Shown here: positions 4,296-61,804 of the stretch, piece after piece | How the letters are laid out: each line of letters starts with the position of its first letter | How positions within the stretch are numbered: position 1 is the first letter of the stretch | Assembly (NCBI RefSeq): GCF_046119375.1 | Contig: NW_027362763.1 | Coordinates: forward strand, 576,662,001 to 576,726,000 | Length of the DNA stretch: 64,000 bases | Direction of reading: 5' to 3' | Source: Phyllobates terribilis | Lineage: Eukaryota | Position numbers and translations under genes: made by a program | Notes under the pieces: generated by a model | The model's database searches: none | Told to the model about the DNA's origin: nothing | The model's input: the letters and a program-made list of their open reading frames with translations, nothing else

Positions 4296-4714
4296 GGCAA
4301 AGTTCACATGAGCATATAAAAAATCATCTGTGTTTCATCCAGAAAAAGCAGATCATTTTTCATTTGTATTGTCATCCATATGGCATTAATTTTTAATACA
4401 TCAGCAGTTATTAAAATTTACAAGATCAAATACAGTTTCCTACGCATAAGAATTGCAAGGTAGCCATAAGAATCAGATGCTATATGCTATATGGTTGATC
4501 TGTATGAAATCCAATTTTTTTTAGCACGCCCATAGTCTTGAATAGGTGCAGGAAATTAGTGCATGCTGCAATATTTTTCCACGTGGACAAGTGGTTAGTT
4601 GAAAAAAAAAACAACGATCATCTGAGTAGCCCTACTGATTAACATTGGTCTGAGTGCTGTCAGTTTGTTCAAGAACAGTACACAAACCGAAAATAGGGAT
4701 GTGTGAACTTAGCC
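4296..4714. mobile_element. PIF/Harbinger-type MITE
   Basis: TIRs GGCAAAGTTCACA / TGTGAACTTAGCC, flanked by TAA and TTA (TWA target typical of PIF/Harbinger). Confidence 0.7.
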
Positions 4715-4749
4715 TTACTGTGATGTACAATTATGCTGGCTTGCATTAA

Positions 4750-6871: not shown

Positions 6872-7359
6872 TTAACAGGGGTTCTCCGGTGAAAACTACT
6901 TTCAGCTTTCCCATTGAGTAGGTGCAGGGTGGGGCAAACTAGGCATTTTTCTAGGTACCCCACTTCCCCAGGGGCCCCCAGCCAGTGGCATGTCACAAAT
7001 AATGGCACACCACACGGTCGCAATGGCGCCCGTGAGTCAGAGGGGGCCTGGTGCAATTGTCGGCCCCGGGCCCTCTCCCCCGCTCACGACATCGCACATT
7101 CAGCTGCATCAGCATCGTTAGATACCAATACAGTTGAAAGCAATGGTGCTGCTCCCTCTCCCATGCCCCCTCTGCCTCTGACGTCTCAGCCAGGGGGCAC
7201 GATGATGCCACTTCATCGCGTCTTGCTGTGCCAGGCAGTGGAGTTGCTGAGGAGACGTGCTGCAGAGACCGGAGTAGTGGGGGAACTGGGCGAGGTGAGT
7301 ATTACATTTTTTTTAAAATCAGTGAGTACTTGGTGGCCATTATACAGGAGGACTATGGG

Positions 7360-21226: not shown

Positions 21227-21282
21227 CTGAAGGTTATATGTACAATTAATATAACATTTCATAAATAGTAATTTGCCATATA

Positions 21283-22897
21283 CAGTACAGACCAAAAGTT
21301 TGGACACACCTTCTCATTTAAAGATTTTTCTGCATTTTCATGACTATGAAAATTGGACATTCACACTGAAGGCATCAAAACTATGAATTAACACATGTGG
21401 AATTATATACTTAACAAAAAAGTGTGAAACAACTGAAAATATATCTTATATTCTAGGTTCTTCAAAGTAGCCACCTTTTGCTTTGATGACTGCTTTGCAC
21501 ACTCTTGGCATTCTCTTGATGAGCTTCAAGAGGTAGTCACCGGAAATGGTTTTCACTTCACAGGTGTGCCCTGTCAGGTTTAATAAGTGGGATTTCTTGC
21601 CTTATAAATGGGGTTGGGACCATCAGTTGTGTTGTGCAGAAGTCTGGTGGATACACAGCTAATAGACGTTAGAATTTGTATTATGGCAAGTAAAAAGCAG
21701 CTAAGTAAAGAAAAACGAGTGGCTATCATTACTTTAAGAAATGAAGGTCAGTCAGTCCGAAAAATTGGGAAACTTTGAAAGTGTCCCCAAGTGCAGTTGC
21801 AAAAACCATCAAGCAATACAAAGAAACTGGCTCACATGAGGACCGCCCCAGGAAAGGAAGACCAAGAGTCACCTCTGCTTCTGAGGATAAGTTTATCCGA
21901 GTCACCAGCCTCAGAAATTGCAGGTTAACAGCAGCTCAGATTAGAGACCGGGTCAATGCCACACAGAGTTCTAGCAGCAGACACATCTCTACAACAACTG
22001 TTAAGAGGAGACTTTGTGCAGCAGGCCTTCATGGTAAAATAGCTGCTAGGAAACCACTGCTAAGGACAGGCAACAAGCAGAAGAGACTTGTTTGGGCTAA
22101 AGAACACAAGGAATGGACATTAGACCAGTGGAAATCTGTGCTTTGGTCTGTTGAGTCCAAATTTGAGATCTTTGGTTCCAACCACCGTGTCTTTGTGCGA
22201 CGCAGAAAAGGTGAACGGATGGACTCTACATGCCTGGTTCCCACCGTGAAGCATGGAGGAGGAGGTGTGATGGTGTGGGGGTGCTTTGCTGGTGACTCTG
22301 TTGGGGATTTATTCAAAATTTATGTCATACTGAACCAGCATGGCTACCACAGCATCTTGCAGCGGCATGCTATTCCATCCGGTTTGGGTTTAGTTGGACC
22401 ATCATTTATGTTTCAACAGGACAATGACCTCAAACACACCTCCAGGCTGTGTAAGGGCTATTTGACCAAGAAGGAGAGTGATGGGGTGCTACGTCAGATG
22501 ACCTGGCCTCCACAGTCACCAGACCTGAACCCAATCGAGATGGTTTGGGGTGAGCTGGACCGCAGAGTGAAGGCAAAAGGGCCAACAAGTGCTAAGCATC
22601 TCTGGGAACTCCTTCAAGATTGTTGGAAGACCATTTCCGGTGACTACCTCTTGAAGCTCATCAAGAGAATGCCAAGAGTGTGCAAAGCAGTCATCAAAGC
22701 AAAAGGTGGCTACTTTGAAGAACCTAGAATATAAGACATATTTTCAGTTGTTTCACACTTTTTTGTTAAGTATATAATTCCACATGTGTTAATTCATAGT
22801 GTTGATGCCTTCAGTGTGAATGTACAATTTTCATAGTCATGAAAATACAGAAAAATCTTTAAATGAGAAGGTGTGTCCAAACTTTTGGTCTGTACTG
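21283..22897 (+). mobile_element. Full-length Tc1 (DD34E) transposon, 1615 bp, long IR/DR-type TIRs
   Basis: TA at both ends; ~200-bp inverted repeats starting CAGTACAGACCAAAAGTTTGGACACACC. Confidence 0.97.
21683..22734 (+). pseudogene. Tc1 transposase, inactivated
   Basis: GRPR linker, VMVWGCF, FQQDND, SPDLNPIE; frameshift near 21770 after MASKKQLSKEKR...; first catalytic D is replaced by V (WSVESKF, 22150-22152). Confidence 0.93.
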
Positions 22898-22899
22898 TA

Positions 22900-24780
22900 T
22901 ATACGAGTAGCCTATCACCCACACTGTTGGCTTAGCGTCACCTGTAAAAGAAACAAACCACGTTAGGATAACAAGTCCGGTCTTATGTACCTCGCCAAAC
23001 ACGTGGATCGCCATCTCCCTATCGTCTGAACTTCCGTTTGTGACAGTCCTGCTCTTGATGCTTCCGTGGCCGCGCCTATGCGGAATGAGTGTGTCCCATA
23101 ATCTTTGGGGTGGTTCCCTGCCGATGTTATGCATTTATTAAATATAGCTTGGAACTGGTATCTTGATAATGGGGTTCCATCAATGTGTGATAGGAAAAAA
23201 TTACTTTGTGATCTGATGGTTATATATGTTTTTACTATTGTTACCCGACTCAGCGTACCATTTGTGGGTTGTAGTAGTACCCAAGTGCCCCTGCCCGCTG
23301 GAACCGTTTTCGATTTGCGTATGCGTAGACGTATTGCATTATTGGCTATGACTACGTCCTGGTGTAATAAGCCTCCACTGGTGTTAATTTTGGATTGAGG
23401 GACTAATTCGCTTATGCATAGCGCCCCGAAGAAGGCGATCGCAAATACAGTAGACAGTAGTGTTGCTTCGAATTGTGAGTATCATGTTAATGGTGTTAGG
23501 GATATGATGTGAGAAATCAGTTTTAGTGACACGGGACGGGACGTCTACACTCCTGACTTGTCTGACCCCTTTTCCACCCTTTTATGGATTGTCTGATGAT
23601 GAATCTCTTTGTCAATTCAGTAGTTGGAAGTGAAATACTACTCCGGTCAGCCACCGCTGCGCTGACGCCCCTGATATGCCCCTCATCATTAGCTGGTGCA
23701 GAAATTCTATGGTGACTTGTAATCTGGCTTGTTCACATTGGTCAACCCGCCTGCCTGCTACTAGTCGTGTCCACTGTTCCCATGCCTTACCGTATGCTTG
23801 CCACATCGACGGGGCAACTGACGCTCTGATTAATGGCATCAACTATTCTCCACTAGATCCCATAGGGAGGCTGGGCAACTGTTGCCCGATGGGTGAGCGT
23901 TGGGGAGGAGCTCTGTGAAAATCTGCCAATTGAATTGTGATAAAGCGTTAGCAGCAGCGTTAGACCCCTCAGCATCGTGGCTAGCGCGGACCCATACATT
24001 GTGTTTTAGGCACAGGAATGCTAGCCGGCATAGTAGGCCTAGCACTGGGAGAGACGATGATGCCATATTATTAATGAAGTGCGCTAGGCTGGTGTTTTTT
24101 GTTATGAAGAGTATATTTTTGTTAGCCAGGCGTGCGCCCCATATTTCTATTGCTACCACTATTGGAAACAATTCCAGGACTGTCTGTTTTTTTGTCAGCA
24201 CTTGTTCTGCCCAATATGGAGGCCATAAGTTGTGCACCATTGGTTATTTAGTATCGCTGCATATCCGCCTGATTCTGCCGCCCCGGTGAATAATCTTAGT
24301 TGAATGTTGGACTGTTCTGCTGACATAAATAACGTGTGACCGTTGAATGATTATAAGAAGGTTTTCCACACCTCTAAGTCCGCCCGTAGCTGCCTGCTGA
24401 TTCTGATTGTATGACTCGGTTTAGATGCCCCTTTTGTTGCGGGCGATAATTGAAGAGAAAAAACCCTTCCGACTGGCATCACCCGGCTCGCAAACACGAG
24501 GAGACCTAGTAATACTTGCATCTGCTGTAGTGTTACTTTCCATACTGCGCAAAAAACCTAGATCAGGTGTAATGTTTTGGTATTTTTTCCCATGGGAGGC
24601 GGAACAACCTTGCTGTGGTGTCGATTTCGAAGCCTAAGAACGATTTTTTTTACTTGTGGGGCCTATGTTTTTGGTTCGGCATAATGGGACTCCAAACCGA
24701 TGTGAGATGTTTGTGAATTTGTTGAGTAAGGGGCAGCGAAAGTGGATGACCAATCGTCACATGGCAGAAAAAGAAAGGAA
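22900..24780 (-). mobile_element. Tyrosine-recombinase retrotransposon (DIRS order, Ngaro-like), 5'-truncated and decayed
   Basis: In order: RT tail (RFGVPL..FLGFEIDT..RLP), RNase H (LELFPIVVAIEIWG), recombinase N-domain (SVAPSMWQAYGKAW), catalytic YGTHSFRIGAATEA...IGRWRS...RYIRP at ~22975-23100. Confidence 0.88.
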
Positions 24781-26150: not shown

Positions 26151-28430
26151 TTTTTTTTTTTCAAATTCAAGTTTTTTTTTATTTTTGTGTTGAAAAAGTA
26201 CAAGAAAATACAATATACATAGTAAAAGGGGTAGTATAACTATAAATCTATGCATAACGACAGTACATTGGGGGGTACAGGGAGGGTTTTCCATCAATAT
26301 CCAGATCAAGCATGTATTTTTCCATATGAAAGATAGAGAGAGAGGGAGCGGACCACGGCAGACCGCCAATCAATAGAGTGCGATTATGATCATTGTTGTG
26401 CCGACATCACGGATAACTTTAGTTGGGGGCTAGATGGTAGGCGTCAGAGTTTTGTAATATCAATCCAATCCTTCCAAATCACACAGTATCTATCAACATC
26501 AGCCGGTGAGATGGCAATCAGATGCTCCATCCTATTAAGGAGGGAGATCTCCGCAAACCATTCCTCCACAGTGGGTGGGTCTCTGCTTTTCTAGTGTCGT
26601 GGAATGATATTCTTAGCCGCCTGTATTAGGTAGCCTATTGATGACCTTTTATAACTACGTTTACTTATTGGTAACATTGATAAAAGGAGGGCTTCTGGCA
26701 TATTAGGGATAGTCAAACCAGTTATTTTCTCCATCATGGGAACCACCTTTGCCCAAAATGCATTTATTATAGGGCATGCCCACTATATGTGTGATATTGT
26801 CCCTTCCCCCACCCCACATCTCCAACATCTATCTGAGACCACTGGATACCATCTTTGAAGGACTGCTGGTACCCGGTACTATCTAGAGATAATTTTGAAG
26901 GAGGTTTCCTGAGCTTTGGACCCTATTGAGGTTTTATGTGTTAGGAAGAAACATTTATCCCATTGTGAGTCAGAGAAGGACTTCCCCAGTTCCGTTTCCC
27001 ATGCACCGCAGAATCCTGGCCTATTGTCAGTTACCTGGGCAATGAGGAGATTATACAGTAGGGAGATGGAGTGTGTAGACGGTGACAATGATAGGCTCAA
27101 TTTTTCAAAGTTTGTGAGATCTCTATGAAGATGTGTGCACTTCTTCACAGTTGAATAGAAGTGTTGTAACTGGCTATATTCAAAATTAGCCTTCGGGGAA
27201 GTGGCTCTTCCCTGTAACAAGTCATTGAGGGGGAGCAGCGAAGTATTGGAGATGACATGAGAAAATAATATCGGATGGGATTTAGTTGAACCGAGAAATC
27301 TATTTGCAGAGAGTCCTGGTGGGAAATCTGGATTATCTGAAATCGGGAGCAAGGGGCCCTGGGGGTCGATTGAGGATAAGCTTTTTTTTGGGGATCTCAA
27401 ACCCAAAGCAGTGGCATAAGTACTATATGACACGAGGCCAAGAGAGGGGACAATTAAATGGGCGCACCATGGGAGAGTGGTAAGAGCTTTAGGACAAATG
27501 GATTGAGCTATTTTGACCCACAATTTCCCCTCCGAATGATGGAAGAAGTCCAGGATTCTAGCATGTACTGCTGCCATGTAATACCTTCTACAATCCAGAA
27601 GGCTAAGGCCCCCCTTTTGCTTGTGTCTGATCAGAACGTCCCCCCGAATGCGTGGACGCCCACTTGCCCAGATAAATCTGCAAAAACTACTGCGTAGTCT
27701 TTTCCAAAAATTTGAGGGAATTACCACGGGAATGGTTTGGAAGAGGTATAAGAGTTTAGGTAGGACGTTCATTTTTAGTATATTTATTCTGCCGAATCAG
27801 GAAAAATCCTTCACCGTCCAAGAAGTAAGATCTCTATGAAGTTGTTCAATAAAGGGCCCAAAATTACGGTAAGATAAAATAGACGGGAGAGGTCTCTATG
27901 AATACGAATTCATAAGTATTTGATACCCTGTGAGGGCCAGGCAAAGGGAAAGTTGGACTGGATGGAATCCTGTATGGATTTGGGGAGGGAGACATCGAGG
28001 GCCTCAGACTTCGCTGCATTGATTTTAAAATTTGACCATGTACCAAAGTGATCTATTTCAGCCATAACAGCAGTGATGGATATATGTGGTTGAGTGATAT
28101 ATACTAGGACATCATCAGCAAATGCAGAGCACTTGTACTCGGTGCCTCCCACCTCAATTCCCCTAATATTGGGGTTATCGTAAATTGATGAGAGCAGGTG
28201 CTCCATCACTAGGATGTATAAGAGAGGGGACAGAGGACATCCCTGCCTTGTCCCACTGGTGATTATGAAAGGTGATGATAATGTTCCGTTTATCTTCAGC
28301 CTAGCTGACGGCCATGATTTTGGCTATAAAAGCGTCCCCTACCCCAAGATTTTTAAGAGAATAATATATGGCGTGCCAGGAGACTCTATGGAAAGCTTTC
28401 CCAGCATCCAGCGAGAGTATCTAATTACAA
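26151..28430 (-). mobile_element. 5'-truncated L1-clade LINE (ORF2 RT and C-terminus, poly-A tail)
   Basis: GTRQGCPLSPLL, SAFADDVLVYI, MNVLPKLLYLFQTIP, CWRCGG..HI.WACP knuckle; A-rich tail at ~26151-26190; stops and frameshifts present. Confidence 0.92.
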
Positions 28431-29373
28431 ATTTTTAACTGCATCTAGCCCAAGCAATACTTTGGGCCTAGTAGCAGTGTCTGCTAGTCAGCGGATTAAC
28501 CCAGCTGTTAAGCAAGCTACACCACCTGTAGTTTGGACACTTAATTTTTTCAAAGGAAATGGTTCGGGCCCCCAGGACACTCAGTGAAGAGCATCGGGAA
28601 GACACCCCAAGGCACAGGGGCTGGGACTGGCGGTAGGACGCCTTGCGGTGGACCGCCAAGCTCGATCCTTATAAAAGCTATTTAACTGCAGCAGCTTTAG
28701 TGGACGCTACTGGAGCTGAAATTACCACGGCTGCTGGCATGAGACTTGCCCTCCAATAGATCCTTGTAAAAGGATTTAAAGTGTACTCATTCAAATTAGA
28801 GAGACAATTTAAATTAAAAAGATTAGACCTGCCTCCACCGCAGGGGGGCTCGCTCGACCCACCAGCGGACAGGCACCAATATTGGGAGAGGGGGGCTGGC
28901 CGTCAGGGTCCACCGCAGCTCTGGCACAAACCCGGCGACACGGAGGTCGCACGGGCAGGAACGGACTGGCCGTGTCGTCGTCGCACTTTTTTGGTTTTAG
29001 AAGGGCATGACATGCCTATATCTGTGTCTCCCCCTCCTTTTACTCCTCCACCTCTTTTCTTTTCGCATGACTATATGTACTTGTCAATTTTCCATGGGCT
29101 AGTTGTGTCTTCTGAGCAGTTTGTCAGCTTTTGAACACCTTTGAAGTGTTTTCTATGTGTTTTCTATGTGTTGCTATGTGTTTTTGTTTGCCTGCCATTG
29201 CTTTTAACGGTGTTCGAAGGTGTTCGACGAACAGTTCGGCGAACATACGGGTGTTCGACGAACCGAACTCGAACACTACGGGGGTGGCTCAACACTACCC
29301 ACGATGCAGAAATGCTCCAGATTTTTCCTGAGCCTTTCTGCATCTCCCTTGCAGAAAAAAATGCATGTGGATT

Positions 29374-30589
29374 TGTGGCGCCCCTGATGGTTCGGTCGCC
29401 ACAGAGGTACTGCATGTCACCCAGAGGTGTGGTATCTCTCCCTCAGGTAAGGAAGGAGTACAGCTCAGGACCCTAACACCTGCATTCACTACACCACATT
29501 TCAGAGGGCAGGGCGAGATTGCTCCTATGGGAGAGCACAGTCCCTGATCCCTGGCTGGAGTGGGGGGAACCACAGTAAGGGGGAACCATGTAGTGGGTGT
29601 GGGTGGAGGACGTAGTTCAGGGGAGAACTTCAGTAGCTGTATAAAAAGAGGAAACCATCTTAGATCAGTGTTCAGTCAGAGGAGGAGAAGTGGCAGGAGC
29701 AGAGGCTCTGCACGAGCTCTGCCCCAGAGGCGGGCCTGGACAGTAAGGCCCAAATCTGAGAAGGAGAGAAGAGAGGAGAGGGAGAAGGAAGGCTCCAGGA
29801 ACAGAAGGGATCCCAGGGGTGCGGGTAGTGCTGGAGGCCACCCGTACGCCCGAATCTACCGGGAGGTGGAGGGATCAGGCCGTGAAAAGGGAACCGGGTC
29901 CCTCAGCTAGTGAAAGATTGCAAGTCTTAGCTAGAAACAGGAGGCTGCTGGATTTCATGTCCTGTAGCCACAAGTCCACGTCAGTCTCACCAAGAAGGTA
30001 GCCACATAGGACCCAGGGGACGGAACATACGTCGCTCGCCAAGGCCAGCGGGTACCGGATTGGAGTCACTAGGTGTGAGGTGCAGAGAAGAGGCCAGAGA
30101 AAGGACACAGAAGTGGGTCCTGCTAAATACTCCGGAGCTATCTGGGGGTGGACTGAGCCCCTCACTGAGTACGCACAGCACGACGGGGGAGATTGCTTTG
30201 GTACCTGTAATCTGGATTGCACCAACTGTGAGTAAAGACCCTGGGACTGCACTATCTTGTCTCTGTGTTCCTTGCTGCGCCATCACCCACTGCACTACAA
30301 TGCCCAGCACAACCTGCAATATCCACACTGCCCTGAAGCTAACTCTTCCTGTGGGGAGTAATAACATCCTCGCTGCAATACCACCAGCTTCCGAGGACTG
30401 TTCTGCAGTGGCGGCCCCTTTAGCCGCATTCCACAGGTGGCGTAGTCGGACTCTTTAATAAAACCTATACATACAATTCCCCTTGGATTGACCGCCCTGG
30501 GTCACGGACCGGGTCACCGCCACTGTGACTACAACCCCCAGCATCTACCGGCCTGGCACTGGGTACCCCACAGCCCAGGGGGCGCGTCA
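29374..30589 (+). repeat. 5' LTR (1216 bp)
   Basis: TGTGGCGCCCC...GGGGCGCGTCA; TATAAAA at 29640; AATAAA at 30457. Confidence 0.93.
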
Positions 30590-30593
30590 ATTT

Positions 30594-30611
30594 TGGCGTA
30601 GTCGGCAGGAT
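30594..30611 (+). promoter_or_regulatory. Primer-binding site for tRNA-Ser
   Basis: TGGCGTAGTCGGCAGGAT is complementary to the 3' end (..ATCCTGCCGACTACGCCA) of vertebrate tRNA-Ser(AGA/TGA type); it begins 4 nt after the LTR. Confidence 0.9.
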
Positions 30612-30640
30612 ATGTAACCCACCCGTTATCATCGGGTATT

Positions 30641-32194
30641 GTGCGCCTAAAGACTGTGTTTTCTACTAAATGTGGCGCCCGCCCCAGAAGAACAGGCGCC
30701 ATTATGTGCGAGCCAAACAACAACAAAAAGTCGCCTCCCATCGTGGGCCAGGTCCCAGAATGGCGCCAAAAGCGTGGCCCACCCACTGCAACTGTGGTCA
30801 TGACCCTGGACCTGTCCATCAGTCTGGAAGAGACGCCCCCAGGTGTGCCCGACAGCAAGCAGACAAGGGACCGCCCCAAAAAGGGGAGAGGAAATAAAAC
30901 TAAGAGACGGGATGTGGTCTGGATCCTTCCAGACGGACCATACCCGGCAGGGAAGATGGAGTTAAGTGAAGCCGGAAGCCCTGCTAGCGGCCTGTCACCA
31001 CCGGAGGCACCCCTCACCCTGGAGGAGTTAATTGCCAGGCTGTCCCGGGAGGATTCTGAGTTCCTCTGTACCGGGATGGAAGACCTGAGTTGGAGGATGG
31101 AGCGGGCCCAGCAAGAGACTATCACAAGCTGGAAGAAAGAGATGGTGGAACGGTTGGCGAGCCGGCAGCAAGCACCGCTGCCAAGCACGGACAGTGCCCC
31201 AGCCGTAGCGGATCCGGACCAGCGCCAGGAGGCGGAGTGCAGCGCAAGAGCGGCCGTGGGAGCAGGTAAGAGGAGTCTCCCTGTTCCGGGCGCTAGAGCC
31301 GCTGACCCTCTCCTGGGCCCTCTGGTGGATCTGCCGACCCCGGGTGCTACTGATACCGGCCCGCTCCTGACACCCCAGCAAGGCCCTCTACCCCCGGCCG
31401 TGGCAAGCGAAGACCCATTCTGGACCCTCCTCCCAGGAAACGTGTCCCCGGGCGAGCCCACCCTAAACTTCTTTCCAGCCCCGGAACCGTTACCTCCAGG
31501 CACCAGCGACACCGGCCCGCTCCTAGGCCTCTTGCAGGAGCCGCCGCCTCCCACACTCAGGTGGATGTGCAAACGGCGTCCATGGGATTGGTCTGCGGAG
31601 GTGGAGGACCAGCGGCCCGCACTCCTGCCCACTCCCCAGCCCCCTGCCGACTCCCGCGGCGAGGAAGAGGAGTACGAGTGGGACAACCTCGGGGAAGACC
31701 TCATGGGGTTTTCCCAAGAAACCAGGGCAGCAGCAGCCCACAGGAAGGAGCACTGTCGGAGGGAGCTGGAGCAACTTGAGAGAGAGAGGCACATCTGGCG
31801 GGTGTGGTGGGAGAAACTAGAGGCCCGCAACATGGTAGAGAAGTCCCGGGCCCGCAGAACCAGCAAAGCAGCATCCGGTCCCCGTACGGAAGGGGTTGTT
31901 GTTAAGTTCAACCTGGATGGAAGTTGGGGTTTCATCCGGGACCCGTGTTCCGACACCGCACTCTTCGTCAATCGGAGGGACGTGGAGTCCCACCTTAAAG
32001 AAGGTCATCCGGACCGAAACCTATTCTCGGGTGATTATGTAAGCTATACCAGACACCGAGGTGAACGAGGCTGGTATGCCTTAAATGTCCACCGGGTGGG
32101 GACAGAGAGCAGCTCCTCACCCTACAGTGCTGAAGACCTGGCTGGGTCAGCCTACAGTGGACAAGATCTTCCCCGGAGGGAGCACCACTACTGA
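30641..32194 (+). CDS. LTR-element ORF: predicted helical segments, Pro-rich repeats and a C-terminal cold-shock domain
   Basis: Uninterrupted ORF (the track starts at a GTG; ATG candidates at 30704 and strong-Kozak 30956); CSD at ~31883-32098 (GVVVKFNLDGSWGFI..ALFVNRRDV..GDYVSY..GERGWYALNV). Confidence 0.82.
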   Translation: MRLKTVFSTKCGARPRRTGAIMCEPNNNKKSPPIVGQVPEWRQKRGPPTATVVMTLDLSISLEETPPGVPDSKQTRDRPKKGRGNKTKRRDVVWILPDGPYPAGKMELSEAGSPASGLSPPEAPLTLEELIARLSREDSEFLCTGMEDLSWRMERAQQETITSWKKEMVERLASRQQAPLPSTDSAPAVADPDQRQEAECSARAAVGAGKRSLPVPGARAADPLLGPLVDLPTPGATDTGPLLTPQQGPLPPAVASEDPFWTLLPGNVSPGEPTLNFFPAPEPLPPGTSDTGPLLGLLQEPPPPTLRWMCKRRPWDWSAEVEDQRPALLPTPQPPADSRGEEEEYEWDNLGEDLMGFSQETRAAAAHRKEHCRRELEQLERERHIWRVWWEKLEARNMVEKSRARRTSKAASGPRTEGVVVKFNLDGSWGFIRDPCSDTALFVNRRDVESHLKEGHPDRNLFSGDYVSYTRHRGERGWYALNVHRVGTESSSSPYSAEDLAGSAYSGQDLPRREHHY

Positions 32195-32248
32195 GCACAG
32201 TAGTTGGAACTTTTGTACTGTAAATAGTTGCCCGGAAGGGTATGGAGA

Positions 32249-33454
32249 TGTAGCACCCTGAGGATTCGGCTGCTACAGGAGTATTGCACCTCAGCCAGAG
32301 GTGTGATATTCCACTCCCGGGTAAGGATGGAGTGTGGAGCTGAGCTCAGATAGCTGCATGCACTACATACATCCCATTTCCGAGGGACAGACCTATGGTA
32401 CTCCCACTAGGAAAATGTGCAGGTACAACCGTGTCTGTCCCTGGCTGGAGTGGGAGGGGGGTGGAACATCCCAGTAGTGTAGGGGCAGATAGGGGGAGCA
32501 GTCTGGGTAGTGCTAGGAGCTCATTGGGTGCTGGTCACCTGAGCTCACACATAGAGGGAGTATATAAGGTGGGAACCATCTTAGATCAGGGTCAGTCAGC
32601 CAGTCGGTCTTTTGCAGAGTCAGTGGAAGAGAGCAGAGGAGCAGAGCAGCCCCAAGGCCCAGAGAGAGAGAGGAGAAAGAAAGACCCAGAGGGGGAGAAA
32701 GAAGGAACTCTAAGAGCCCAAATTAAATCAAAGGGTGAAGAGTTGGCACAAGGGTACCGGATCCCAAACTGGTGGAGGGCACTTATCCTCAGCCAGAGAC
32801 CGGAGGTCGTGGGCAGGATCTGCCACGACCACCCACTATATCCACCCGGAAGGCAGACCACGCATAGGGTCAGGGAACCCAGAGACAAGGGTTTACCAAC
32901 AAGAGGCCCGAGGGAGCCGGACTTAGGTGGATCCCTGGTGGGGAAGGCCAGAGACGAGGACAGGACAGAAAGGGAGCTCAGAACCACGCTCCAGAACTAC
33001 TTGGGGGTTGGCCGAGTCCAGGACCTGGTGGATGCAGCACGGCTCGGGTGGTCACTCAAGGCCGGAGTGACCGGTACAAGAACAGCAGTAAGTAAAAACC
33101 CTGAACTGCAGAACCCGACTCTGACTCTCATTACCATCCTCACTGCACCTCCACAACCACCATCCTCTGCACCTGACCCCCTGAGGCTATACCCCTCCCG
33201 TTGGGGGTTATACTACCTGAGCTGCGCAAACACCACCAGCCTCAGCGGACCCTGCTGCAGCGGCGGCCGTAGTGACCGCAATTCAACGGGTGGCGTAGTC
33301 GACATAAAGAACTTTAGTAACATCAGTAAGGACTGCCACACTCTGAGCTTGACACCCTGGGCACGGACCGGGTCACAGCCACTCGGAGACTACAACCCCC
33401 ATCTGATCCGGCTCCGGGTATTCCCCTAAAGAATATGGCCCAGGGGGCGCGTCA
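32249..33454 (+). mobile_element. Solo LTR of a related but divergent subfamily, nested in the CSD element
   Basis: TGTAGCACCC...GGGGCGCGTCA; TSD GAGA at 32245-48 and 33455-58. Confidence 0.9.
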
Positions 33455-34097
33455 GAGACACTGCAAGTTTGACTGGTGTTGTGTGCTAATATAGTTACCC
33501 GGAAAGGGTTCAAAAACTGTCAGGTTATGGACGGTGAATAACCAAAGAACTGATCTTCTAAATAGTTGCACTTCTTAAAGTGCCCCTTATTGGTTTTATA
33601 AATATACAACAAATGACCTCAGAACAAAAACCCGTTTGGCGTGGCCGAAGATGTGGTCCAACGGCCGGATCACCTATGCCCTGCAGCCACGCCCAGGGCC
33701 TACGTTGAGGGTTTTCAGACGGGTCCCTCGTGTTCGAGTTTGCTAGTTTGCACCTTACAAAAAAAATGGACACCTGGTTGCAGATCTTACTGTGACTGGT
33801 TGACAAAAGTTTTACATGGAAAAATGTTTTGATATGACAAATGCTTAATATGAAGAATGTTTATGAGAAAAGTGTTTTATGCGTGAGAGATGTGTTTATA
33901 CAAGTGAAAAAGTTTTATAATGTAGTGATAGAAACGTAACCAGTAACGTTAAAGAAAAAGAGCCTCCCATAAAGGGAAGAAATGTTATGTTTGTGATCTT
34001 CTATGAGAATGCATTCAAAAATTTTGCATGTCTTTAATCTACCCTGTCTTTTACTCTGTTCCAGCCTGGGGACGTGCTGTGTTTTACCAGGGGTGGG

Positions 34098-35456
34098 TGT
34101 GGCGCCCCTGAGGGTTCGGTCACCACAGAGGTACTGCATCTCACCCAGAGGTGTGGTATCTCACCCTCAGGTAAGGAAGGAGTACAGCTCAGGACCCTAA
34201 CACCTGCATTCACTACACCACATTTCAGAGGGCAGGGCGAGATTGCTCCTACGGGAGAGCACAGTCCCTGATCCCTGGCTGAATTGGGGGGAACCACAGT
34301 AAGGGGGAACCATGTAGTGGGTGTGGGTGGAGGACATAGTTCAGGGGAGCACTTCAGTAGCTGTATAAAAAGAGGGAACCATCTTAGATCAGTGTTCAGT
34401 CAGAGGAGGGGAAGCGACAGGAGAAGAGGCTCTGCACGAGCTCTGCCCCAGAGGCGGGCCTGGACAGTAAGGCCCAAATCTGAGAAGGAGAGGAGAGGGA
34501 GCAGGAAGGCTCCAGGAACAGAAGGGATCCTAGGGGTGCGGGCAGTGCTGGAGGCCACCCGAACGCCCGAATCTACCGGGAGGTGGAGGGATCAGGCTGT
34601 GAAAAGGGAACCGGGTCCTTCAGCTAGTGAAAGATTGCAAGTCTTAGCTAGAATCCGGAGGCTGCTGGATTTCATGTCCTGTAGCCACAAGTCCACGCCA
34701 GTCTCACCAAGAAGGTAGCCACATAAGACCCAGGGGACGGAACATACGTCGCCCTCCATGGCCCGCGGGTACCGGATTGGAGTCACTAGGTGTGAGGCTA
34801 GAAACCGGAGGCTGCTGGATTTCATGTCCTGTAGCCACAAGTCCACTCCAGTCTCACCAAGAAGGTAGCCACATAGGACCCAGGGGACGGAACATACGTC
34901 GCCCTCCATGGCCCGCAGGTACCGGATTGGAGTCACTAGGTGTGAGGTGCAGAGAAGAGGCCAGAGAAAGGACACAGAAGGGGGTCCTGCTACGTACTCC
35001 GGAGCTATCTGGGGGTGGACTGAGCCCCTCACTGAGTACGCACAGCACAACGGGGGAGATTGCTTTGGTACCTGTAATCTGGATTGCACCAACTGTGAGT
35101 AAAGACCCTGGGACTGCACTATCTTGTCTCTGTGTTCCTTGCTGCGCCATCACCCACTGCACTACAACGCCCAGCACAACCTGCAATATCCACACTGCCC
35201 TGAAGCTAACTCTTCCTGTGGGGAGTAATAACATCCTCGCTGCAATACCACCAGCTTCAGAGGACTGTTCCACAGCGGCAGCCCCTTTAGCCGCATTCCA
35301 CAGGTGGCGTAGTCGGACTCTTTAATAAAACCTATACATACAATTCCCCTTGGATTGACCGCCCTGGGTCACGGACCGGGTAACCGCCACTGTGACTACA
35401 ACCCCCAGCATCTACCGGCCCGGCACCGGGTACCCCACGGCCCAGGGGGCGCGTCA
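34098..35456 (+). repeat. 3' LTR (1359 bp) with an internal 150-bp tandem duplication
   Basis: Colinear with the 5' LTR; duplicated unit at 34647-34796 / 34797-34946. Confidence 0.93.
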
Positions 35457-36959
35457 GATTTTACATGCGTTTTTCCTGCCAGGGACAAGCGGAAGTGAAG
35501 CGTTTTTGCATACATTTGCCGCGGTCGCGTGACCCGTCACATAACTAAATGACATCACGGCAGGTCCTTTTTAGACCATCGCGAGCTGCCGGCAAGCCAG
35601 GACGCATCGCTAAAGACATCGGGGGCCATCAGAAGGTAAGTATAAAGTATATTTTTTATTTTAGTCTTTTTTTTACAGGTAGTATTGTACCAGGGTCTGG
35701 AGGAGAGTCTCCTCTTCTCCAAACACGGGTACCATCCGCACATTGAACCGCATGATATCCGCATGTACAGATCCAGTGATGCGTAATCCATGCAGTCCAA
35801 TGCAAGTCAATGGCGGCGAAAACGCCACAATTTCGCAAAATAATTGGTAGTGCTGCGGATTTTTCCACAATGATAACCCGCAGCAGAAATTTCCGCAGCA
35901 TGTGCACAGCACATGCGGATTATCATTGGGGAACATGGCAGACCTTCTACCAAGCATTTTTTAAGCATTTCTGCCGCGGAATTACCGCTGCGGAAATGCT
36001 TAAAAAACACATAGTGGGCACACAGCCTAATTGTCCCCTCAGGGTACTCAAAGCTGAGATCGTCTAATTGCTTGAGCTATTTGTGCTTGTGTCACAACGT
36101 TACTGTAAAAAGTTAAAATCACGGTCTCCTTTGAAGCTCAGCCACATGCTGGATTTTAAAGGAGCTCCGCAATGATAAGCATGGAAGTCTTCAACAGACC
36201 CCCCACTGTTATAGCAATTCATCACAGTCTCTGCTCCGATGAGCACATGGAATGACTCGCCCCCTTACCCCTTAGCCCCACCCTCCCCCGTGCCAGCTAG
36301 TGATGAGCGAACGTGCTCGCCACTACTCGGTACTCGCCCGAGCATCATGGTGCTCAACAAGCTCGGCGAGTATTTCCGGGTTGCTCGGGCGGGAACTAGG
36401 GTCTCCTCCCTGAATGTTTGGCGCTCTTTAGAGAGCCAATGAACATGCAGGGATTGCCTCTTATGCACTGTAATGCCGTAGCCATGTTGGTTGTGGGCAT
36501 TACAGTGATTGGCTGGCCACATAGCGTCATCAGGTGTATATCAGACCTGGCGCCGCCATGCTCGTCACAGTCACTCCGGATCAGACAGTGTAGGGAGCGC
36601 TGCTGCTGCGTCAGGGAGAGATTTGATCGTGTATTAGGTAGTGTAAGGATAAAAACCGTACATTACACATATCCATCTTAACAAACAGTCCTTCTGAGGA
36701 CTAATCCATCTGCAGAGATATCAGGCAGGCAGTGTATATAGCAGACTGCAGTGCATATAGCACAAGAGGCTCCATTCCAGTTCTGTCGGCTCCATTTCTA
36801 TACAAAGGCCCAGGTCTCAGGGGCCAGGAATACTTTTTTTTTTGCATCTTAATCATCATTATTTGCTTAAAAAGCAATCCAGAGAACACTGTTTTTCTGC
36901 GTCATTTGCTTGTTGGCACTGCAGAATACAACCAGGTCCTTTCCATATTACAGCGCTAA

Positions 36960-38635
36960 AAATCCATCTATTTAAAACCGTGTTTTCTCCATCACACGGA
37001 TCACATATACGTTGTCAGAAAATACTGCCATTTCTGGCCTCCATTAAAAAATTTTTTCGGAGTGTCAGTGAAGCAATTGACACCAGATTGTTGTTCAAAA
37101 TAGTTACCTACAGGCCAGGTATTTAAAACTGTGTTTTCTCTGTCACACGGCTCACATATATGTTGTCAGAAAATACTGCCATTTCTGGCCTCCATTAAAA
37201 AAAAATTTCAGTGTGTCAGCAAAGTTTTTGACACTGGTTTGCTGTTCAAAACAGATACCTACAGGCCAGGTATGTAAAACTGTGTTTTCTCCGTCACACG
37301 GCTCACATATACGTTGTCAGAAAATACTGCCATTTCTGGTCTCCATTAAAAAAAATTTCAGTGTGTCAGCAACATTTTTGACACTGGTTTGCTGTTCAAA
37401 CAGTTACCTACAGGCCAGGTATTTAAAACCGTGTTTTCTCCGTCACACGGATTACATATACGTTTTTAGAAAATACTGCCATTTCTGGCCTCCATTAAAA
37501 AAAAATTTCAGTGTGTCAGTGACTCGCCCCCTGGGCCGTGGGGCACTCGGAACCGGGCTTCAGGGCAATGCTGGGAGTAGTAGTGGCGACCCGGTTCCGT
37601 GGCTCAGGGTGGTCAGACCAGTGGTAGTCTGCTATGTGCTGTAGGTAATGTCCGACTACGCCACCCGTGGAATGCGGTCAGGGCTAACCGCCGCTGCAGT
37701 GCAGACCACTGGGGCTGATATAAAGGTGCAGCACTGAATAGTTTCACTCCCCACGGGAGGAGTATGGCCCCAGGGCAGTATATATAATGGATGATGGTGG
37801 GGATGATTCCGACCGCGATAGCCAGGAAACGGAGGCCTCTTAAACAGTTCAGGGTCTTTATTAGAACAGGTAATATGACCCAGAAACAGGCCCGGCTAGG
37901 AGGGGGCCTGGATGTCTGAGAACAAGTGGGAAGCTGGCCCTGGTCAGGGTGAGGGTGTAGGCCTACCATGCTCTCTGTGCTCCTTCTGGCTATTTCCCTC
38001 CTTGTAGTGTAACAGCCCACGTTCCTGAGCTCACCGTGTCCTCTCGCCCGTATGGCTTGCAACTTGGGTCCCTTTCTACTCCCGGCCTGGTACGGTTTTG
38101 CGGGTCCCTTCTGCTGTGGCGGAGCCTCCGGGCTTCTTAGGTCAAGGAACATACAGTCCCCTGTGGACTGGTTATCTGCTGTAGGACCTGGAATCCTCCC
38201 AGCCTCAGACACCAAAGTCTGGTAGATTAGTTTCTTTATCTGCCAGGACAGGCTCACTTCGCCTTTGTCCCTGGCTCGTGGCTCTCCTACTGCCACACGT
38301 CCTCTTAGGCTGCAACACAACTGTCTGTCCCTGCTCTGGGACACCTCTCAATCCAGAGACAGGTTGTCCAGTTCTCTCTAACCCTGCCCCCAGTTCCAGC
38401 TTTTATAGGGGCAGCCTGCTCCCCCTACTGGCCTGGGACAGGAGGTATTGCATGCTAATGGTCCTTGACTAGAGAACCTCCCCCTTGCTCTCAGACACAG
38501 CTTTATTATATTTGTGGCATCCAGGCCAGGGTGACACATCAGCAAAGTTTTTGACACTGGTTTGCTGTTCAAAATAGTTACCTACAGGCCAGGTATTTAA
38601 AACTCTGGTTTCTCCGTCACACGGATCACATACTG
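36960..38635 (+). repeat. ~150-bp tandem subterminal repeats of the hAT, interrupted by an LTR
   Basis: AAATACTGCCATTTCTGG recurs at 37020, 37171, 37322 and 37471; the array resumes after 38539. Confidence 0.85.
37520..38538 (-). mobile_element. Solo LTR (Gypsy family related to the CSD-element LTRs)
   Basis: TG..CA termini; TSD TCAG on both sides. Confidence 0.9.
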
Positions 38636-38689: not shown

Positions 38690-41600
38690 CCATTCAAAAT
38701 GGGTAGGCACGTGGCAAGGGACGGGGAACTGGACGTGATGGTAATGGTGCATGCAGAGGCCAAGGACAAGGCCGTGGGCAAGAAGAAATTGTGCCACAAC
38801 AAACACCCACGTCTTCTCGCCTGACCTTCCTGTCCCAATTTCTAGGGGACCGCAGCACACCACTATTTAACCCAGAACAGTATCAAAAGGTTGTTGGTTG
38901 GATAGCGGGTAATGTTTCCAGTCACTTAGCCACCACCACCACCACCCTGTCTTCCACACGGTCAAGTCTCAATAGCCATGAGTCTGGACCGCATATTCCT
39001 CACCCTAATCCTCCTTCCTCCCACCATGCCGAGTACCCAGAGACAACTGATCTCACACTTGGACACTCTGAAGAGCTGTTCACTTTTCCATTTATAGATT
39101 AGGGCCTCTCGCCCAGTCCACTTGAAGCGGGGCAAGAGGAGATCGCGTGTAGCGATGCCTAAATATTTGAGCAGCCACGGTCACACAAAGGCGACTGTGG
39201 GAAAGTGTCACAAGAGGTGGATGATGATGAGACACAATTGCCAGAAAGTCAGGAGGAGGACCAGGGTGCAGAAGTGGAAGACGAGGTGGTGGATGATATA
39301 GTAACTGACCCAACCTGGCAGGAGGACAGCAGCACACAGGGGGAGGGAGAGCACCCCAACAGGCAGGAAGAAGCAGTGTGGTGACCGCAGACAGAAGGCA
39401 GGCAACTGTTCCCCTTAACACCAACACGAAGGAAGTTGCCAGTACATCTGGTAGGTCTTCCCGAGTCTGGTTGTTTTTTAAAGACTCTGCCGATAACCCC
39501 AAAAAGGCCATTTGCACCACCTGCCAGGCCAGCATCAGCAGGGGTGGCAAAACGAGCAGCCTGACCACCACCAGCATGATCAGGCACATAGCAGCAAAGC
39601 ACCCGACTTTGTGGGCCGAACCCCAGGGTCCAGGAACAGTGTCTGCGAGTGGCACCACTGCTTCTTACGCTGTTGTGCATGCAAGCCAATCCCCTGTCCA
39701 TGGTACATGCAAAGACACCTCCTGCCCTGCACCTGTCGTTGCACTCTCTCAAGTAGCAGCATCAGGAAGAACGTCTATGTCCTTGTCCCAGCGCAGCATT
39801 CAGTTGTCCATACCCCAGTCCTTGGAACGCAAGCGCAAATATGCAGCCAACGCCCCACAGGCCACACTACTAAATTCTCACATTTCACGACTGCTTGCGC
39901 TCGAAATGTTGCCTTTTAGGCTCGTGGAGACGGAAGCATTCCGCAACCTGATGGCAGCAGCCGTCCATCGGTACTCGGTCCCCAGCCGCCACTATTTCTC
40001 CCGGTGTGCCGTCCCCGCATTACACAAGCATGTGTCCCAAAACATTAGCCGTGCTCTCAACAATGCAGTTACTGGTAAAGTCCTCCTAACCACGGACACA
40101 TGGACAAGTGCTTGTGGGCAGGGACGGTACATCTTGCTGACAGCACACTGGGTTAACATAGTGAAAGCCGGGACCCAGTCGGATGCCAGTCCCGACGCCA
40201 AGGATTGCGGGCCCTAGGTCAATTAGGGTTGCCCCCACGGTCTACAGTTCCTGCACTTCATCCTCCTCAGCCTCCTCCTCCTCTTCAGCCTCCATCTCCG
40301 AAATGACCACATCAGTCACAAGCTGGAAGCACTGCAGCATTGCCTTGGCCAAGCGGCAAGAGGCTGTGCTGAAACTAATATGCTTAGGTGAAAAACCGCA
40401 CAATGCTGAAGAGTTGTGGAGAGCTCTGAAAGAGCAGGCAGATCTGTGGCTCACACCGCTGAACCTACAGCCAGGCATGGTCGTGTGTAACAATGGCCGG
40501 AACCTTGTTGCGGCTCTGAGGCGAGGCGAGCTCACACACATACCATGCCTGGCCAATGTGCTTGACCTCGTGGTTCAGTGGTTTCTCAAATCCTACCCGG
40601 AGCTGCCGGATCTGCTTGTTAAAGTACGCCACCTGTGTGCCCATTTTAGAAAGTCAGCTACAGCTTCCTCCATCCTTACAGTGTTTCAGCAGCGCTTGCA
40701 GATTCCGGCTCAGAGACTGGTGTGTGATGTCCCCAAGCGTTGGAACTCTACACTGCAGATGTTGGGAAGGATTTGTGAGCAGAAAAGGGCAGTTGTTGAG
40801 TACCAACATCAACAAGGTCGTCAGTATTCAGTTGATATTCCACACATAAGACCTCAGGAGTGGACATGGATGTCAGACATATGTACCATCCTCCAAAACT
40901 TTGAGGACTCCACCAGGCTGGTGAGCAGTGATAACGCCATAATTAGCGTCACCATCCCGCTTCTCTGTCTTCTGAAATGCTCACTGCTCATAATCAAAGA
41001 GGATGCATTGCAGGCGGAGTACAATGAGATGGAGCAAGGAACCATACAGGGTGATTACACACAGCCAAGCCTCATCTCATCCCAACATGGATTGGGTGAC
41101 AATGAGGAAGAGGAGGAAGGACAGGAGCTAGTTTCATGCACTATAGACGGTACTACCTGCACAGCTGTCATATCGTCTGTTCAGCGTGGATGGCCAGAGG
41201 ACAGAGAGGAGGAGGAGGAGAGCATGGTCAGTCATCCTCTTGGTGAGGACACGGAAGTCTTGCCTGTTAGCAGTCTGGCACACATGGCTGAGTTTATGTT
41301 ACGCTGCCTTTCCCATGACCCTCGGGTTCTCAAAATTTTGGTGACAGTCATTACTGGTTGGTGACACTTCTAGACCCACACTTACAAGGAGAACTTTCTA
41401 TCTCTTATTCCTGAGGCAGACAGGTCTACAAAAATGGGGCAGTACCAGAAGGCCCTTGTTGCGGAACTATTCTCATCTGAAAACACTGGTGGCAGAGGGC
41501 ACACTTTGTTGTACAACCAAGGAGTACAGGCGAGAGAGACACAACTTCAATCCAGCAGAGGCAGGGGAACACTGTCAAAGTTCTGGGAGAGTTTTCTCAG

Positions 41601-41967
41601 ACCCTCCCATCGCACAGGCCCTCAGGCGCGGGGTACTCTCATAAGGAGTGCAAAGTTTGGGAAGATGCAGAGGGAGTACCTTGCCGACCGTACCAACGTC
41701 CTCCGTGATTCCTCTGTGCCTTATAATTATTGGGTATCCAAGCTGGATACATGGAATGAACTGGCTCTCTATGCCTTGGAGGTCCTGGCCTGCCCTACTG
41801 CCAGCGTTTTATCAGAGCGGGTTTTTAATGCCGCTGGTGGAATTATAACTGATAAGCACATCCACCTGTCAACTAAAAATGATGACAGGCTGACTCTTAT
41901 AAAAATGAACAAGGGCTGGATTGGGCCAGACTTCTCAACACCACCGAATGATAGCAGCGTAACATAA
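38690..41967 (+). pseudogene. hAT transposase with BED finger, disrupted
   Basis: BED (VWLFFK..CTTC..RHIAAKH), LTTDTWTS, RWNST, dimerisation domain (LACPTASVLSERVFN); several frameshifts; CDNG changed to CNNG and CxxH to CxxN. Confidence 0.92.
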
Positions 41968-46352: not shown

Positions 46353-46547
46353 AGGCGGTCCTTCCCAGTAAGTGCACTGGGGAGGGCACGGGTAATGTTG
46401 TGGGACCCGTGCTTGAAGAAGGCGGAGACGATACCGGGAAATATAGTGGCGGCTGGGGACCAAGTATGGACACCCAGCTGCCGCCGGCATGAGGCTGTGA
46501 AAAGCTTCCGCCTCCACGAGCCTAAAAGGCCACATTTCAAGGACAAG

Positions 46548-47568
46548 TGACTCACCCCCTGGGCCGTGGGGCACTCGGAGCCGGGCTTCAGGGCAATGCT
46601 GGGAGTAGTAGTGGCGACCCAGTCCCGTGGCTCAGGGTGGTCAGACCATATGCGGAGGCAGTGTATTTGTAGGTTTTGAAAGTCCGACTATGCCACCCGT
46701 GGATTACGGTCAGGGAGGACCGCCGCTGCAAGGCAGACCACTGAGGCTGGTGTTGGGGATGCAGCAGGGAATAGTACAACTCCCCACGGGAGGAGTGTAG
46801 CCTCAGGGCAGTGTAATAGGATGTTGGGGGTGATGATGCAGGTGCCGCAGTAATCACACAGAGTCCAATAATGCAGTCCAGGGTCTTTTACTGCAGATCT
46901 TATCACAGACCCACCAGGAGTACAGGGTAGGAATAGGCCTGGGTGTCTGAGGGCATTCGGGAGAGCTCCACTGGCCAGGGTGAGTGGGTAGGCCTACCGT
47001 TCTCTCTCTGCCCTTGCTGACTATTTCCCCCTTTAGTGGTATGATAGCCCACGTCCCTGAGCATGCCGTGTACTACGCCTGTATGGCTTGCGACTCGGGC
47101 CTTAGGTACCTGTAGCTTCTCCGTGCTGTACCGGTCCCTCTGTGTGGCGGAGCCTCCAGGCTCCTTAGGCCAAGGGACCTGAAATCCCTTGCTGGTTGGT
47201 TATCTGCAGCCGGGCTTGCAACTCTGACAGCCTCGGACCCCAGTGTCCGGTTGTGTAGTTCTCTCTCTTTCAACCAGGACCGGCTCTCGTCGCCTCTGTC
47301 CCTGGCTTTCTGTTCCTCCTTTGCCTCCTGGACTCCTCAGCTGCGGCTGAACTGTCCCTCTCTTCTGGGAACCCTTCTGGATGCTTCAGAAGTGGGTCCT
47401 GGTCTCTCTAACCCTGCCCTCAGTACCAGTTTTTATAGGGGCAGCCTGCTCCCCCTGCTAGCCTGGGACAGGAGGTGCTGCATGCTAATGGTCCATGACC
47501 AGAGAACCTCCCTCCTGCTCTCAGACACAGCCTTACAAGTTTGTGGCATCCAGGCCTGGGGTGACACA
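46548..47568 (-). mobile_element. Solo LTR (same family as 37520-38538)
   Basis: TG..CA termini; TSD CAAG. Confidence 0.9.
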
Positions 47569-48424
47569 CAAGCAGCTGTCAAAAATTTGGCAGTATAGTA
47601 TTGGAGCCTGTGGGTGGGTGGGTGGCTGGCTGCATAGTTGTGCTTGCATTCCAAGGAATGGGGTAGGGACAACTGAACGCTGCAGTGGGACAAGGTCGTG
47701 GACGGTGATTGTTGCAAGTCTGCAACGACAGGTTCATGGCGGGAGGCATTGTTGCATGCGCCAAGGATCACTTATGATAGGCACACTTTTAGGCAGTGAT
47801 CTGGGAGTCAGAGATGCTTCCAGAGGTCTTCCCCATGCGGTTCCCATGTCTTTTCAGCACTCTATGCATGTGTCTGATGATGTGTCACACACCACATGGC
47901 CAGATAAGGTTGTAAAATGTTAAAATGAAATTTCCTGGTGAATGCATTTGTCTTGGTTGAAAGCAATGCAAAAGTGCAAAAACGCATCAAAAACGCTACG
48001 TGTGAACATAGCCCAAGGTGTGGAGGAGTATTTTTGTTTTTGGATATTTATTTTGCTTTATATATATTGTACATGTCATGGAAAGGATGTTCCTTAACAT
48101 ATTTCCCCAGAAAATCCATTTTGGTTTCGTAATACCTCTGACAATGTTGTTGACAAAAGTGACCTGGGAGTCAGAAATGCTTCCAGGGGTCTTCCCCATG
48201 CTGTCCCCATGTCATTTGAGCACTGTTCCCATTGATTTGGGCAATTTTTATGCTCTCTGCAGACCGCAGGGGGGAGCCGCCTGAAAAATGCTCGAGTTTC
48301 CCATAGACTTACATTGGGCTCATTGCTCGGGTTGAGCACCTGAGTATTCCAATTTGCTCGACCCGAGCAATGAGCACCTGAGCATTTTAGTGCTCGCTCA
48401 TCACTAGTGCCAGCGCATGTTAAG

Positions 48425-61600: not shown

Positions 61601-61804
61601 ATGTAAGTTCTCTGGCTTATATGGCTGAGACGGATCAGGACGGAATGATGTGGCATGAGGGTTAAGTTGTGGTTTAGTCTCTATAGGGTCTGCTGGCTGC
61701 GGCCTAAATTGTGGGTAAGTGCTGGAAATTACTTTGTCAGCAGTAGGTGGCGACATTTCTTGGCTTACGAGTGCATCCGTGTGGTGGATTGGAGGTGGCG
61801 CTGG

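Follow-up and report, generated by a model that had tools for sequence, protein, structure and literature searches.

The window analysed here, a stretch of 64,000 nucleotides of the Phyllobates terribilis genome (assembly GCF_046119375.1, contig NW_027362763.1, positions 576,662,001 to 576,726,000 of the forward strand), contains between its positions 29374 and 35456, on the plus strand, a long terminal repeat (LTR) retroelement without recognizable gag or pol, whose single open reading frame (ORF) ends in a cold-shock domain (CSD). An earlier reading of the letters alone, the first-pass annotation, had delimited this element by a GATT target site duplication (TSD), two LTRs, a polypurine tract (PPT) and some 2.3 kb of interior, all of which were recovered at these bounds. 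The two TSD copies lie at 29370-29373 and 35457-35460 (sequence comparison), the 5' LTR (1216 bp, TGTGG...GCGTCA) was placed by LTR alignment at 29374-30589, and the 3' LTR (1359 bp, including a tandem duplication of 150 bp at 34647-34947) occupies 34098-35456. The LTRs are 96.5% identical, with 42 mismatches over 1209 aligned bases, which at the rate of 2.5e-9 given in 10.1101/2023.11.06.565769 corresponds to a rough insertion age of 7 million years. In the 5' LTR, TATAAAA at 29640 and AATAAA at 30457 are putative promoter and polyadenylation motifs, and an 18-nt primer-binding site (PBS; 30594-30611, TGGCGTAGTCGGCAGGAT) complementary to host tRNA-Ser(TGA/AGA) lies just beyond it, in a form identical to that of a gag-pol partner class described below. 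The ORF spans 30602-32194 (530 codons from stop to stop), with candidate start codons at 30704 (496 aa) and 30956 (412 aa); of the 412-517 aa proposed at first, the shorter product stands and the other ATG-based length becomes 496 aa. It comprises a conserved amphipathic helical module, which we call helix A (31013-31171), a Pro-rich linker of variable length (31172-31660), an EWD..GEDLMGF motif with a predicted charged helix that runs into the CSD (31661-31882), and the CSD itself (31892-32098; five predicted strands and a long Y-box-type loop), after which only about 31 residues follow. Downstream, at 32249-33454, sits a nested solo LTR that belongs to a young sister subfamily of the CSD class and has its own TSD GAGA; the 3' non-coding interior (33459-34085), where a pyrimidine tract with CAG, some 35 nt short of the 3' LTR, resembles a splice acceptor by motif, leads to the PPT (34086-34097), a near-identical purine tract being present in relatives of both classes. 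Once the nested solo LTR is removed, the element's own interior amounts to 1659 + 639 bp.

The ORF ends in a real cold-shock domain, whose predicted structure is a five-strand fold of the oligonucleotide/oligosaccharide-binding type, as the first-pass annotation had proposed from an alignment by eye. Pfam PF00313 matches the window ORF with 26.8 bits (E 4.8e-6), just below its curated cut-off of 27 bits, and is the sole Pfam match, and relatives in the family score 31.9-46.3 bits against the same model. A sequence search of the PDB with the window copy returned 13 matches, all of them CSD proteins and individually weak (E 0.056 or worse); with a profile of 20 family copies all 37 matches were CSD-type, YBX1 coming first (E 2.6e-11) and YBX proteins taking the top eight places (45.6-47 bits, aligned with one gap), with CspA at 43.3 bits. 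AlphaFold2 predicts a 45-residue helix and then five strands, with a predicted local distance difference test score of 86-93 over the CSD, and Foldseek aligned the predicted domain with CspA (1mjc) at E 9e-7, a TM score of 0.88 by target and a root-mean-square deviation of 1.7, ranking bacterial Csps above Y-box proteins; the ESM Atlas gave leads under 0.9 only. Every one of 61 family copies keeps the phenylalanines of RNP1 and RNP2, and the tyrosine at a Y-box RNP1/RNP2 surface position is tryptophan in the element CSDs.

Elsewhere in the window ORF no similarity to Gag or Pol was found with Pfam, with tblastn against three partner elements or with hhalign, which agrees with the original description of an ORF devoid of such motifs. 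Helix A has no Pfam match common to the members, no Foldseek match and no known family; a degenerate Gag was tried as its identity and rejected (hhalign probability 0.4), and a complex prediction of the partner Gag with helix A scored 0.00, a 'no answer' that says nothing either way. In one sublineage (L114, also L112 and L113) the interior measures 1.4 kb and a short ORF has its Met directly before the CSD, an arrangement that may yield a stand-alone CSD protein. A search of sequencing runs listed none recorded as RNA among those that hold the element; the young copy L103 was covered in all 30 bins by four contig runs, which are possibly DNA and have no bearing on expression.

The ORF is open in multiple copies, and its evolution is uneven along its length. 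Nei-Gojobori counts over 55 pairs of 11 open copies (dS 0.5-2.2) gave a CSD dN/dS of 0.16 (confidence interval 0.09-0.24), the copies having been chosen for an open frame, which lowers all values and leaves the contrast within the ORF standing; ten pairs of five copies picked by PBS and not by protein score gave 0.07 (0.03-0.13). The corresponding values were 0.21 (range 0.11-0.29) for the motif and the helix preceding the CSD, 0.35 (range 0.18-0.35) for helix A, 0.59 (range 0.45-0.73) for the linker, 0.66 for the tail and 0.73 (range 0.66-1.04) for the first 75 codons, and the CSD, at 0.07-0.17 and not near 1, is the slowest-changing part of the ORF. There is, hence, purifying selection on the CSD and the two helices between mobile subfamilies. 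This bears directly on the idea of a single captured CSD that either rides along as a neutral passenger or has been retained for the benefit of the host, an idea that appears highly improbable: the neutral form is contradicted by the low CSD ratios between mobile subfamilies, the domain has been kept in lineages as little as 24-30% identical to each other, and many family copies are individually broken, as is expected if selection acts during transposition and not after insertion. The ratio of about 0.53 among duplicated copies of the window insertion (30 nonsynonymous and 18 synonymous changes, 3 and 2 of them in the CSD) speaks for that idea, with too few changes to decide.

The family is large and has a counterpart. 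In the 10.6 Gb of genome searched, the exact LTR end plus PBS occurs at 51,421 junctions, the CSD codon motif 28,682 times (reversed control 13) and the reverse transcriptase (RT) motif of the partner 32,460 times (control 0); the copy numbers of the CSD and gag-pol classes are near 1:1, with the CSD figure a lower bound because its motif detects 50 of 61 sampled copies and misses the window's own. Thirty PBS-anchored loci comprised 12 that cluster as Gag-type (PNMA-type Gag plus CCHC) and 15 of CSD-ORF type, and twenty ten-kb stretches held 7 gag-pol elements, 12 CSD-family elements and 1 truncated copy. The gag-pol elements have an interior of about 5.9 kb without a CSD match, and LTR pairs 98.8-99.7% identical in six of the seven; their domains (PNMA, zf-CCHC, protease, RT, RNase H and integrase) follow the Gypsy order. 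The CSD-family elements have an interior of 1.9-2.55 kb without pol between the LTRs, which are 99.0-99.9% identical in eleven of the twelve; the CSD is present in nine, five of these in one open frame, and deleted in three. Most sampled copies are thus very young and both classes have recently been inserted, whereas the window copy, with LTRs 96.5% identical, does not belong among the youngest.

The two cargoes do not occur together. Among 100 LTR-PBS junctions, the first on contig C1 and all within the first 18 Mb of one chromosome, 38 are followed by the CSD motif only, 41 by the RT motif only, none by both and 21 by neither (Fisher p 1e-12), and the suggestion that autonomous relatives might carry the same ORF accordingly found no instance. 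None of the 21 'neither' junctions had both upon inspection, nine being of gag-pol type, seven of the CSD family (five CSD-deleted, one interrupted and one with CSD), three chimeras and two other. A candidate for a CSD inside an autonomous element, the one CSD motif of 89 that lies near an RT motif, was rejected, since there a CSD element has landed in pol (L171). In another PBS group (2,098 junctions), a sample of 30 gave 14 Gag-type and about 11 CSD-family members. The window element does not carry between its LTRs the gag and pol that characterize autonomous Ty3/Gypsy elements (Metaviridae), which the partner class does, and it cannot be placed with terminal-repeat retrotransposons in miniature (TRIM) or large retrotransposon derivatives (LARD) either, since its ORF is open and under selection and LARD are defined by a lack of coding capacity.

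The helper of Gypsy type that the first-pass annotation had postulated has a plausible counterpart in this PNMA-Gag Gypsy class, which has in common with the CSD class the PBS, the first part of the leader, the purine tract, the 4-bp duplications and the 3' end of the LTR. The last 240-380 bp of the LTR are 68-86% identical between classes (68-73% for the window LTR against partner LTRs), the 5' two thirds being not alignable, and L100 and L106 are 88% identical over 505 bp spanning the LTR end and leader. The common 3' terminus is GGGGGCG(C/A)GTCA, and the 5' ends begin with TGT and then diverge (TGTGG/TGTAG versus TGTGA/TGTGT). Measured against the features by which the wheat elements Cereba and Quinta are paired in PMC11302176, i.e. 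an identical PBS, LTR termini and a conserved 3' LTR part, the window class has the PBS and the 3' LTR part and differs at the 5' LTR terminus. For mobilization by the enzymes of the partner, a further feature of such pairs, the signs are indirect and consist of the 4-bp duplications in both classes and of chimeras. In two chimeras (L173 and L182) the start of the partner Gag is fused in frame to the tail of the CSD ORF, with the 3' end of the partner, and because their flanks differ they are separate insertions; in a third (L179) the partner leader is joined to the CSD ORF. Template switching in shared particles would explain these chimeras simply. The minus strand of the window holds three further LTRs of this group (37518-38544, 46546-47574 and about 61815-62795), all apparently solo and 68-74% alike to the 3' part of the element's LTR.

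The in-frame chimeras also fit a proposal of the first-pass annotation that fared poorly, namely that the protein substitutes for nucleocapsid, to which may be added the related possibility of a particle component that chaperones primer annealing and strand transfer. CSDs act as nucleic-acid chaperones, and a helix followed by an RNA-binding domain recalls the layout of L1 ORF1p; yet a CCHC knuckle is already present in the partner Gag, nothing in the ORF resembles a capsid and CSD-less copies have recently been mobilized, all of which makes such a role very unlikely.

As regards its origin, the CSD appears to have been acquired long ago. A tree of 82 columns, in which neither YBX nor LIN28 of a vertebrate is represented by an intact row, unites 18 element CSDs in a single group (92/98, not starred); its long branch falls outside the Y-box-like sequences, and the grouping suggests one old capture. 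The long loop and the profile rank (47 versus 43 bits for CspA) suggest a Y-box gene as the donor, whereas the Foldseek ranking and the tree do not point to it. The Y-box likeness seen by the first-pass annotation is therefore retained in part, in the loop and the profile rank, and weakened by two replaced RNA-contact residues, a tree that does not support nesting and a missing tail. When the host YBX was sought in the genome, an intact exon was not retrieved, only one decayed copy. The same resemblance raises the notion of a translation switch, in which the protein would act in oocytes as a competitor of the host's own Y-box masking proteins, or would decide whether element RNA is translated or packaged. 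FRGY2 masks mRNA, YBX1 and YBX2 are the best profile matches, and a CSD without the Y-box tail is the form expected of a competitor. Gypsy RNA is reported to be high in the ova of another poison frog (PMC6278860). As the tree does not settle the Y-box ancestry of the element CSDs, we regard this notion as quite unlikely.

Homologs occur among the proteins annotated as uncharacterised in Ranitomeya variabilis, R. imitator and Anomaloglossus baeobatrachus; two further ones carry the Phyllobates terribilis label and are not counted as independent of the source genome. No homolog was seen outside poison frogs in protein word searches (0, 2 and 3 matches) or among the best 150 of 5,334 representative matches (10 named), a set swamped by multi-CSD proteins, and the search does not bound the host range because repeats are usually masked before gene calling. 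Other CSD sequences were encountered in the genome. A low-copy divergent lineage (L041, L126 and L129, within about 37 kb on contig C4) keeps the RNP2 histidine (VYVH/VFVH) and adjoins LTRs starting TGTGACG. Further divergent CSD ORFs (L132, L144 and protein P0159) have no clear LTR pair within 10 kb, and one of this set has a close match in R. imitator that gene prediction has fused to an astacin/CUB gene. The genome's best PF00313 matches are duplicated retrocopy fragments on contig C1 (L031-L036), which we take from their sequence to be CSDE1/Unr-like.

We consider it somewhat better than an even chance (about 0.55), by analogy with the host protein YB-1, that the window element belongs to a non-autonomous class that is copied by the gag-pol machinery of its partner and contributes a YB-1-like, RNA-stabilizing protein, partly in trans. 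The LTR would drive a transcript serving both as mRNA and as template; particles built of partner Gag would take it up together with partner RNA, tRNA-Ser would prime its copying, and integration would create a 4-bp duplication. The CSD protein would bind single-stranded element RNA through the retained RNP1 and RNP2 phenylalanines, thereby enlarging the pool of packageable RNA, and would act at least partly in trans, since CSD-deleted copies with 99.8% LTR identity have moved and the protein is thus not needed in cis; it follows that it may help the gag-pol partner as well. YB-1 is reported to stabilize the genomic RNA of human immunodeficiency virus (HIV) and murine leukaemia virus (MLV) (PMC6040738).

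Several observations weigh against this assignment. Of 61 copies, 60 have K or R in place of the Y-box tryptophan (VKWFN) and all have N, T, K or A in place of the Y-box histidine (DVFVH), and because these are contact residues, binding by the element CSD may differ from that of YB-1; the long alternating basic/acidic tail of Y-box proteins is, moreover, missing after the CSD. The CSD is deleted in at least 5 of the 45 CSD-family junctions among the 100, two of these copies having LTRs 99.8% identical, and such dispensability in cis raises the question of what maintains selection, for which partial cis preference, co-expression or partner dependence may be options. In a second family with a CSD, whose LTR is unrelated (544 junctions), no Gag-type member was seen, 20 of 20 sampled loci belonging to that family, and the 1:1 pairing by a common LTR end is therefore not general. 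The chimeras could have arisen by genomic recombination, and the choice of open copies for dN/dS and the position of the 100 junctions at the start of one chromosome must also be borne in mind. The second family is itself pol-less (L146, positions 3586-8254 on the reverse strand, with L145, L147, L149 and L152). Its LTR measures 1.03 kb and its 819-codon frame is rich in Arg in the N-terminal part; a 4-bp duplication is present, the copies often lie in tandem, and there are at least 109 CSD motifs.

Some of the same facts can be turned toward a different function, whereby the CSD protein binds Piwi-interacting RNAs (piRNAs), their precursors or host silencing ribonucleoproteins and lifts repression of the element group in trans. 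Action in trans, as the young CSD-deleted copies indicate, the huge expansion of the group to 51,421 junctions, the altered RNA-contact residues and the additional helical modules under selection, which could recruit host factors, are all compatible with it; on the other hand, there is no sign of the rapid adaptive evolution that such conflicts often bring, the CSD being the slowest part of the ORF, and we hold this function to be unlikely.

Additional features of the locus may be noted. In the genome, 36 places match the PBS complement together with a T-loop motif; ARAGORN called tRNA-Ser(TGA or AGA) at 4 of 10 such places in one set and, at six others, one tRNA-Ala and no tRNA-Ser, which gives Ser at 4 of the 16 places examined and upholds the primer named at first, and an Rfam search of those six found no match. 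A second PBS-like stretch, GGTGGCGTAGTCG, lies about 150 bp before the 3' end of each LTR (30436-30450, 35303-35317 and, in the nested solo LTR, 33289-33302) and in related solo LTRs too. The nested LTR is 84% identical over its full length to the LTRs of the young CSD-class elements L103 and L105, and is missing from four near-identical copies of the window element. Fresh transposition of these four was rejected: two of them (L001 and L005; the others are L003 and L004) have the window's flanks, and the near-identical copies look like duplications of one insertion because those flanks are common, as shown for two of the four. An antisense frame of 491 codons (30529-32004, minus strand), long in several relatives too, is probably a by-product of GC-rich codon use, and neither this frame nor a 361-codon frame in the solo LTR has a credible Pfam match. 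The element was inserted into a short palindrome-rich repeat, upstream of which lie L1-type RT fragments (26879-28323, minus strand). The window further holds a Tc1-like transposon (21278-22902), whose inverted repeats measure 277 bp and whose transposase-like frame has 329 codons, and, judged by eye, a broken Penelope-like RT/GIY-YIG element (53782-56575), a broken hAT-like transposase (39309-41967) and BEL/Pao-like fragments on the minus strand (51576-52706 and 59534-62113), a BEL/Pao-like element being interrupted near 61815-62795 by an LTR of the window element's group.

Parts of this arrangement have precedents. According to He et al. 2025 (PMC12287698), 46 bird endogenous retroviruses (ERVs) among more than 470,000 carry a CSD (pfam00313), captured several times, and the capture of CSDs by LTR elements is therefore already known. 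Like the window family these are LTR retroelements with a host-type CSD, for which a proliferation benefit is suggested, but they are described as RT-encoding retroviruses with a variable CSD position and multiple captures (PMC12287698), whereas the window family has a Gypsy-type partner, no gag or pol, the CSD as its sole known domain, some 28,000 copies and measured purifying selection. The wheat pair RLG_Cereba/RLG_Quinta likewise joins an autonomous element to a non-autonomous partner with a common PBS, LTR ends and 3' LTR part and an open ORF proposed to serve both; Quinta is described as derived from its partner and contributing Gag plus a domain of unknown function (PMC11302176), in contrast to a captured CSD without Gag similarity. 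YB-1 (YBX1, our best profile match), a cofactor of HIV, MLV and mouse mammary tumour virus and, as such, a CSD protein that stabilizes LTR-element genomic RNA, is a host product in which the CSD lies centrally and the charged tail is long (PMC6040738), unlike the window protein, which is element-encoded with a C-terminal CSD and two replaced contact residues. Xenopus 1A11 and Xretpos are frog pol-less LTR elements with one ORF, expressed in embryos; 1A11, compared here by description only, is presented as Gag-like in PMC4585706, where cold shock goes unmentioned in the main text. Bdelloid LTR retrotransposons have family-specific captured accessory ORFs (ORF3), but their setting is an autonomous element, in which they follow pol, and no CSD is named in the main text (PMC5408684). 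The term 'cold shock' is also absent from the main texts of PMC6278860, 10.1101/2023.11.06.565769, PMC12208295 and PMC10886601, as of PMC5408684 and PMC4585706, and in PMC13583293 it refers to a host gene; the supplements of all these papers may hold an annotation. The first-pass statement that no LTR family with CSD cargo has been described is thus superseded by the bird ERVs and survives in narrower form: CSD capture (birds) and coding non-autonomous partners (wheat) are known, their combination was not found, and a literature search, outside of which lie Repbase, Dfam and most supplements, brought up no family that lacks gag and pol and is defined by a CSD.

These findings shed light on what a selfish element without enzymes may retain. 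Such an element is expected to lose its coding capacity, and here a captured domain of RNA-binding type is kept under strong selection across deeply diverged lineages, in a class that rivals its helper in copy number and that, at about 28,000 copies of about 4.9 kb, accounts for on the order of 1% of the 10.6-Gb genome, solo LTRs excluded. A more ambitious view, which we advance tentatively and find doubtful as a whole, is that of a bipartite and in effect segmented LTR retrotransposon, in which a gag-pol component and a captured Y-box-like RNA-binding component would be mutually dependent. Joint packaging, along with LTR ends and leaders exchanged again and again, would keep the two components near 1:1 in the different PBS groups, and together they would have helped to inflate poison-frog genomes. 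In the family one can study an accessory gene that resides on a component of its own and ask how far transposons cooperate or cheat, the CSD-deleted copies being natural cheaters. Much of the repeat content of giant frog genomes is reported as unclassified (PMC12208295), and the CSD protein is a candidate factor behind the expansion of Gypsy elements in these genomes.

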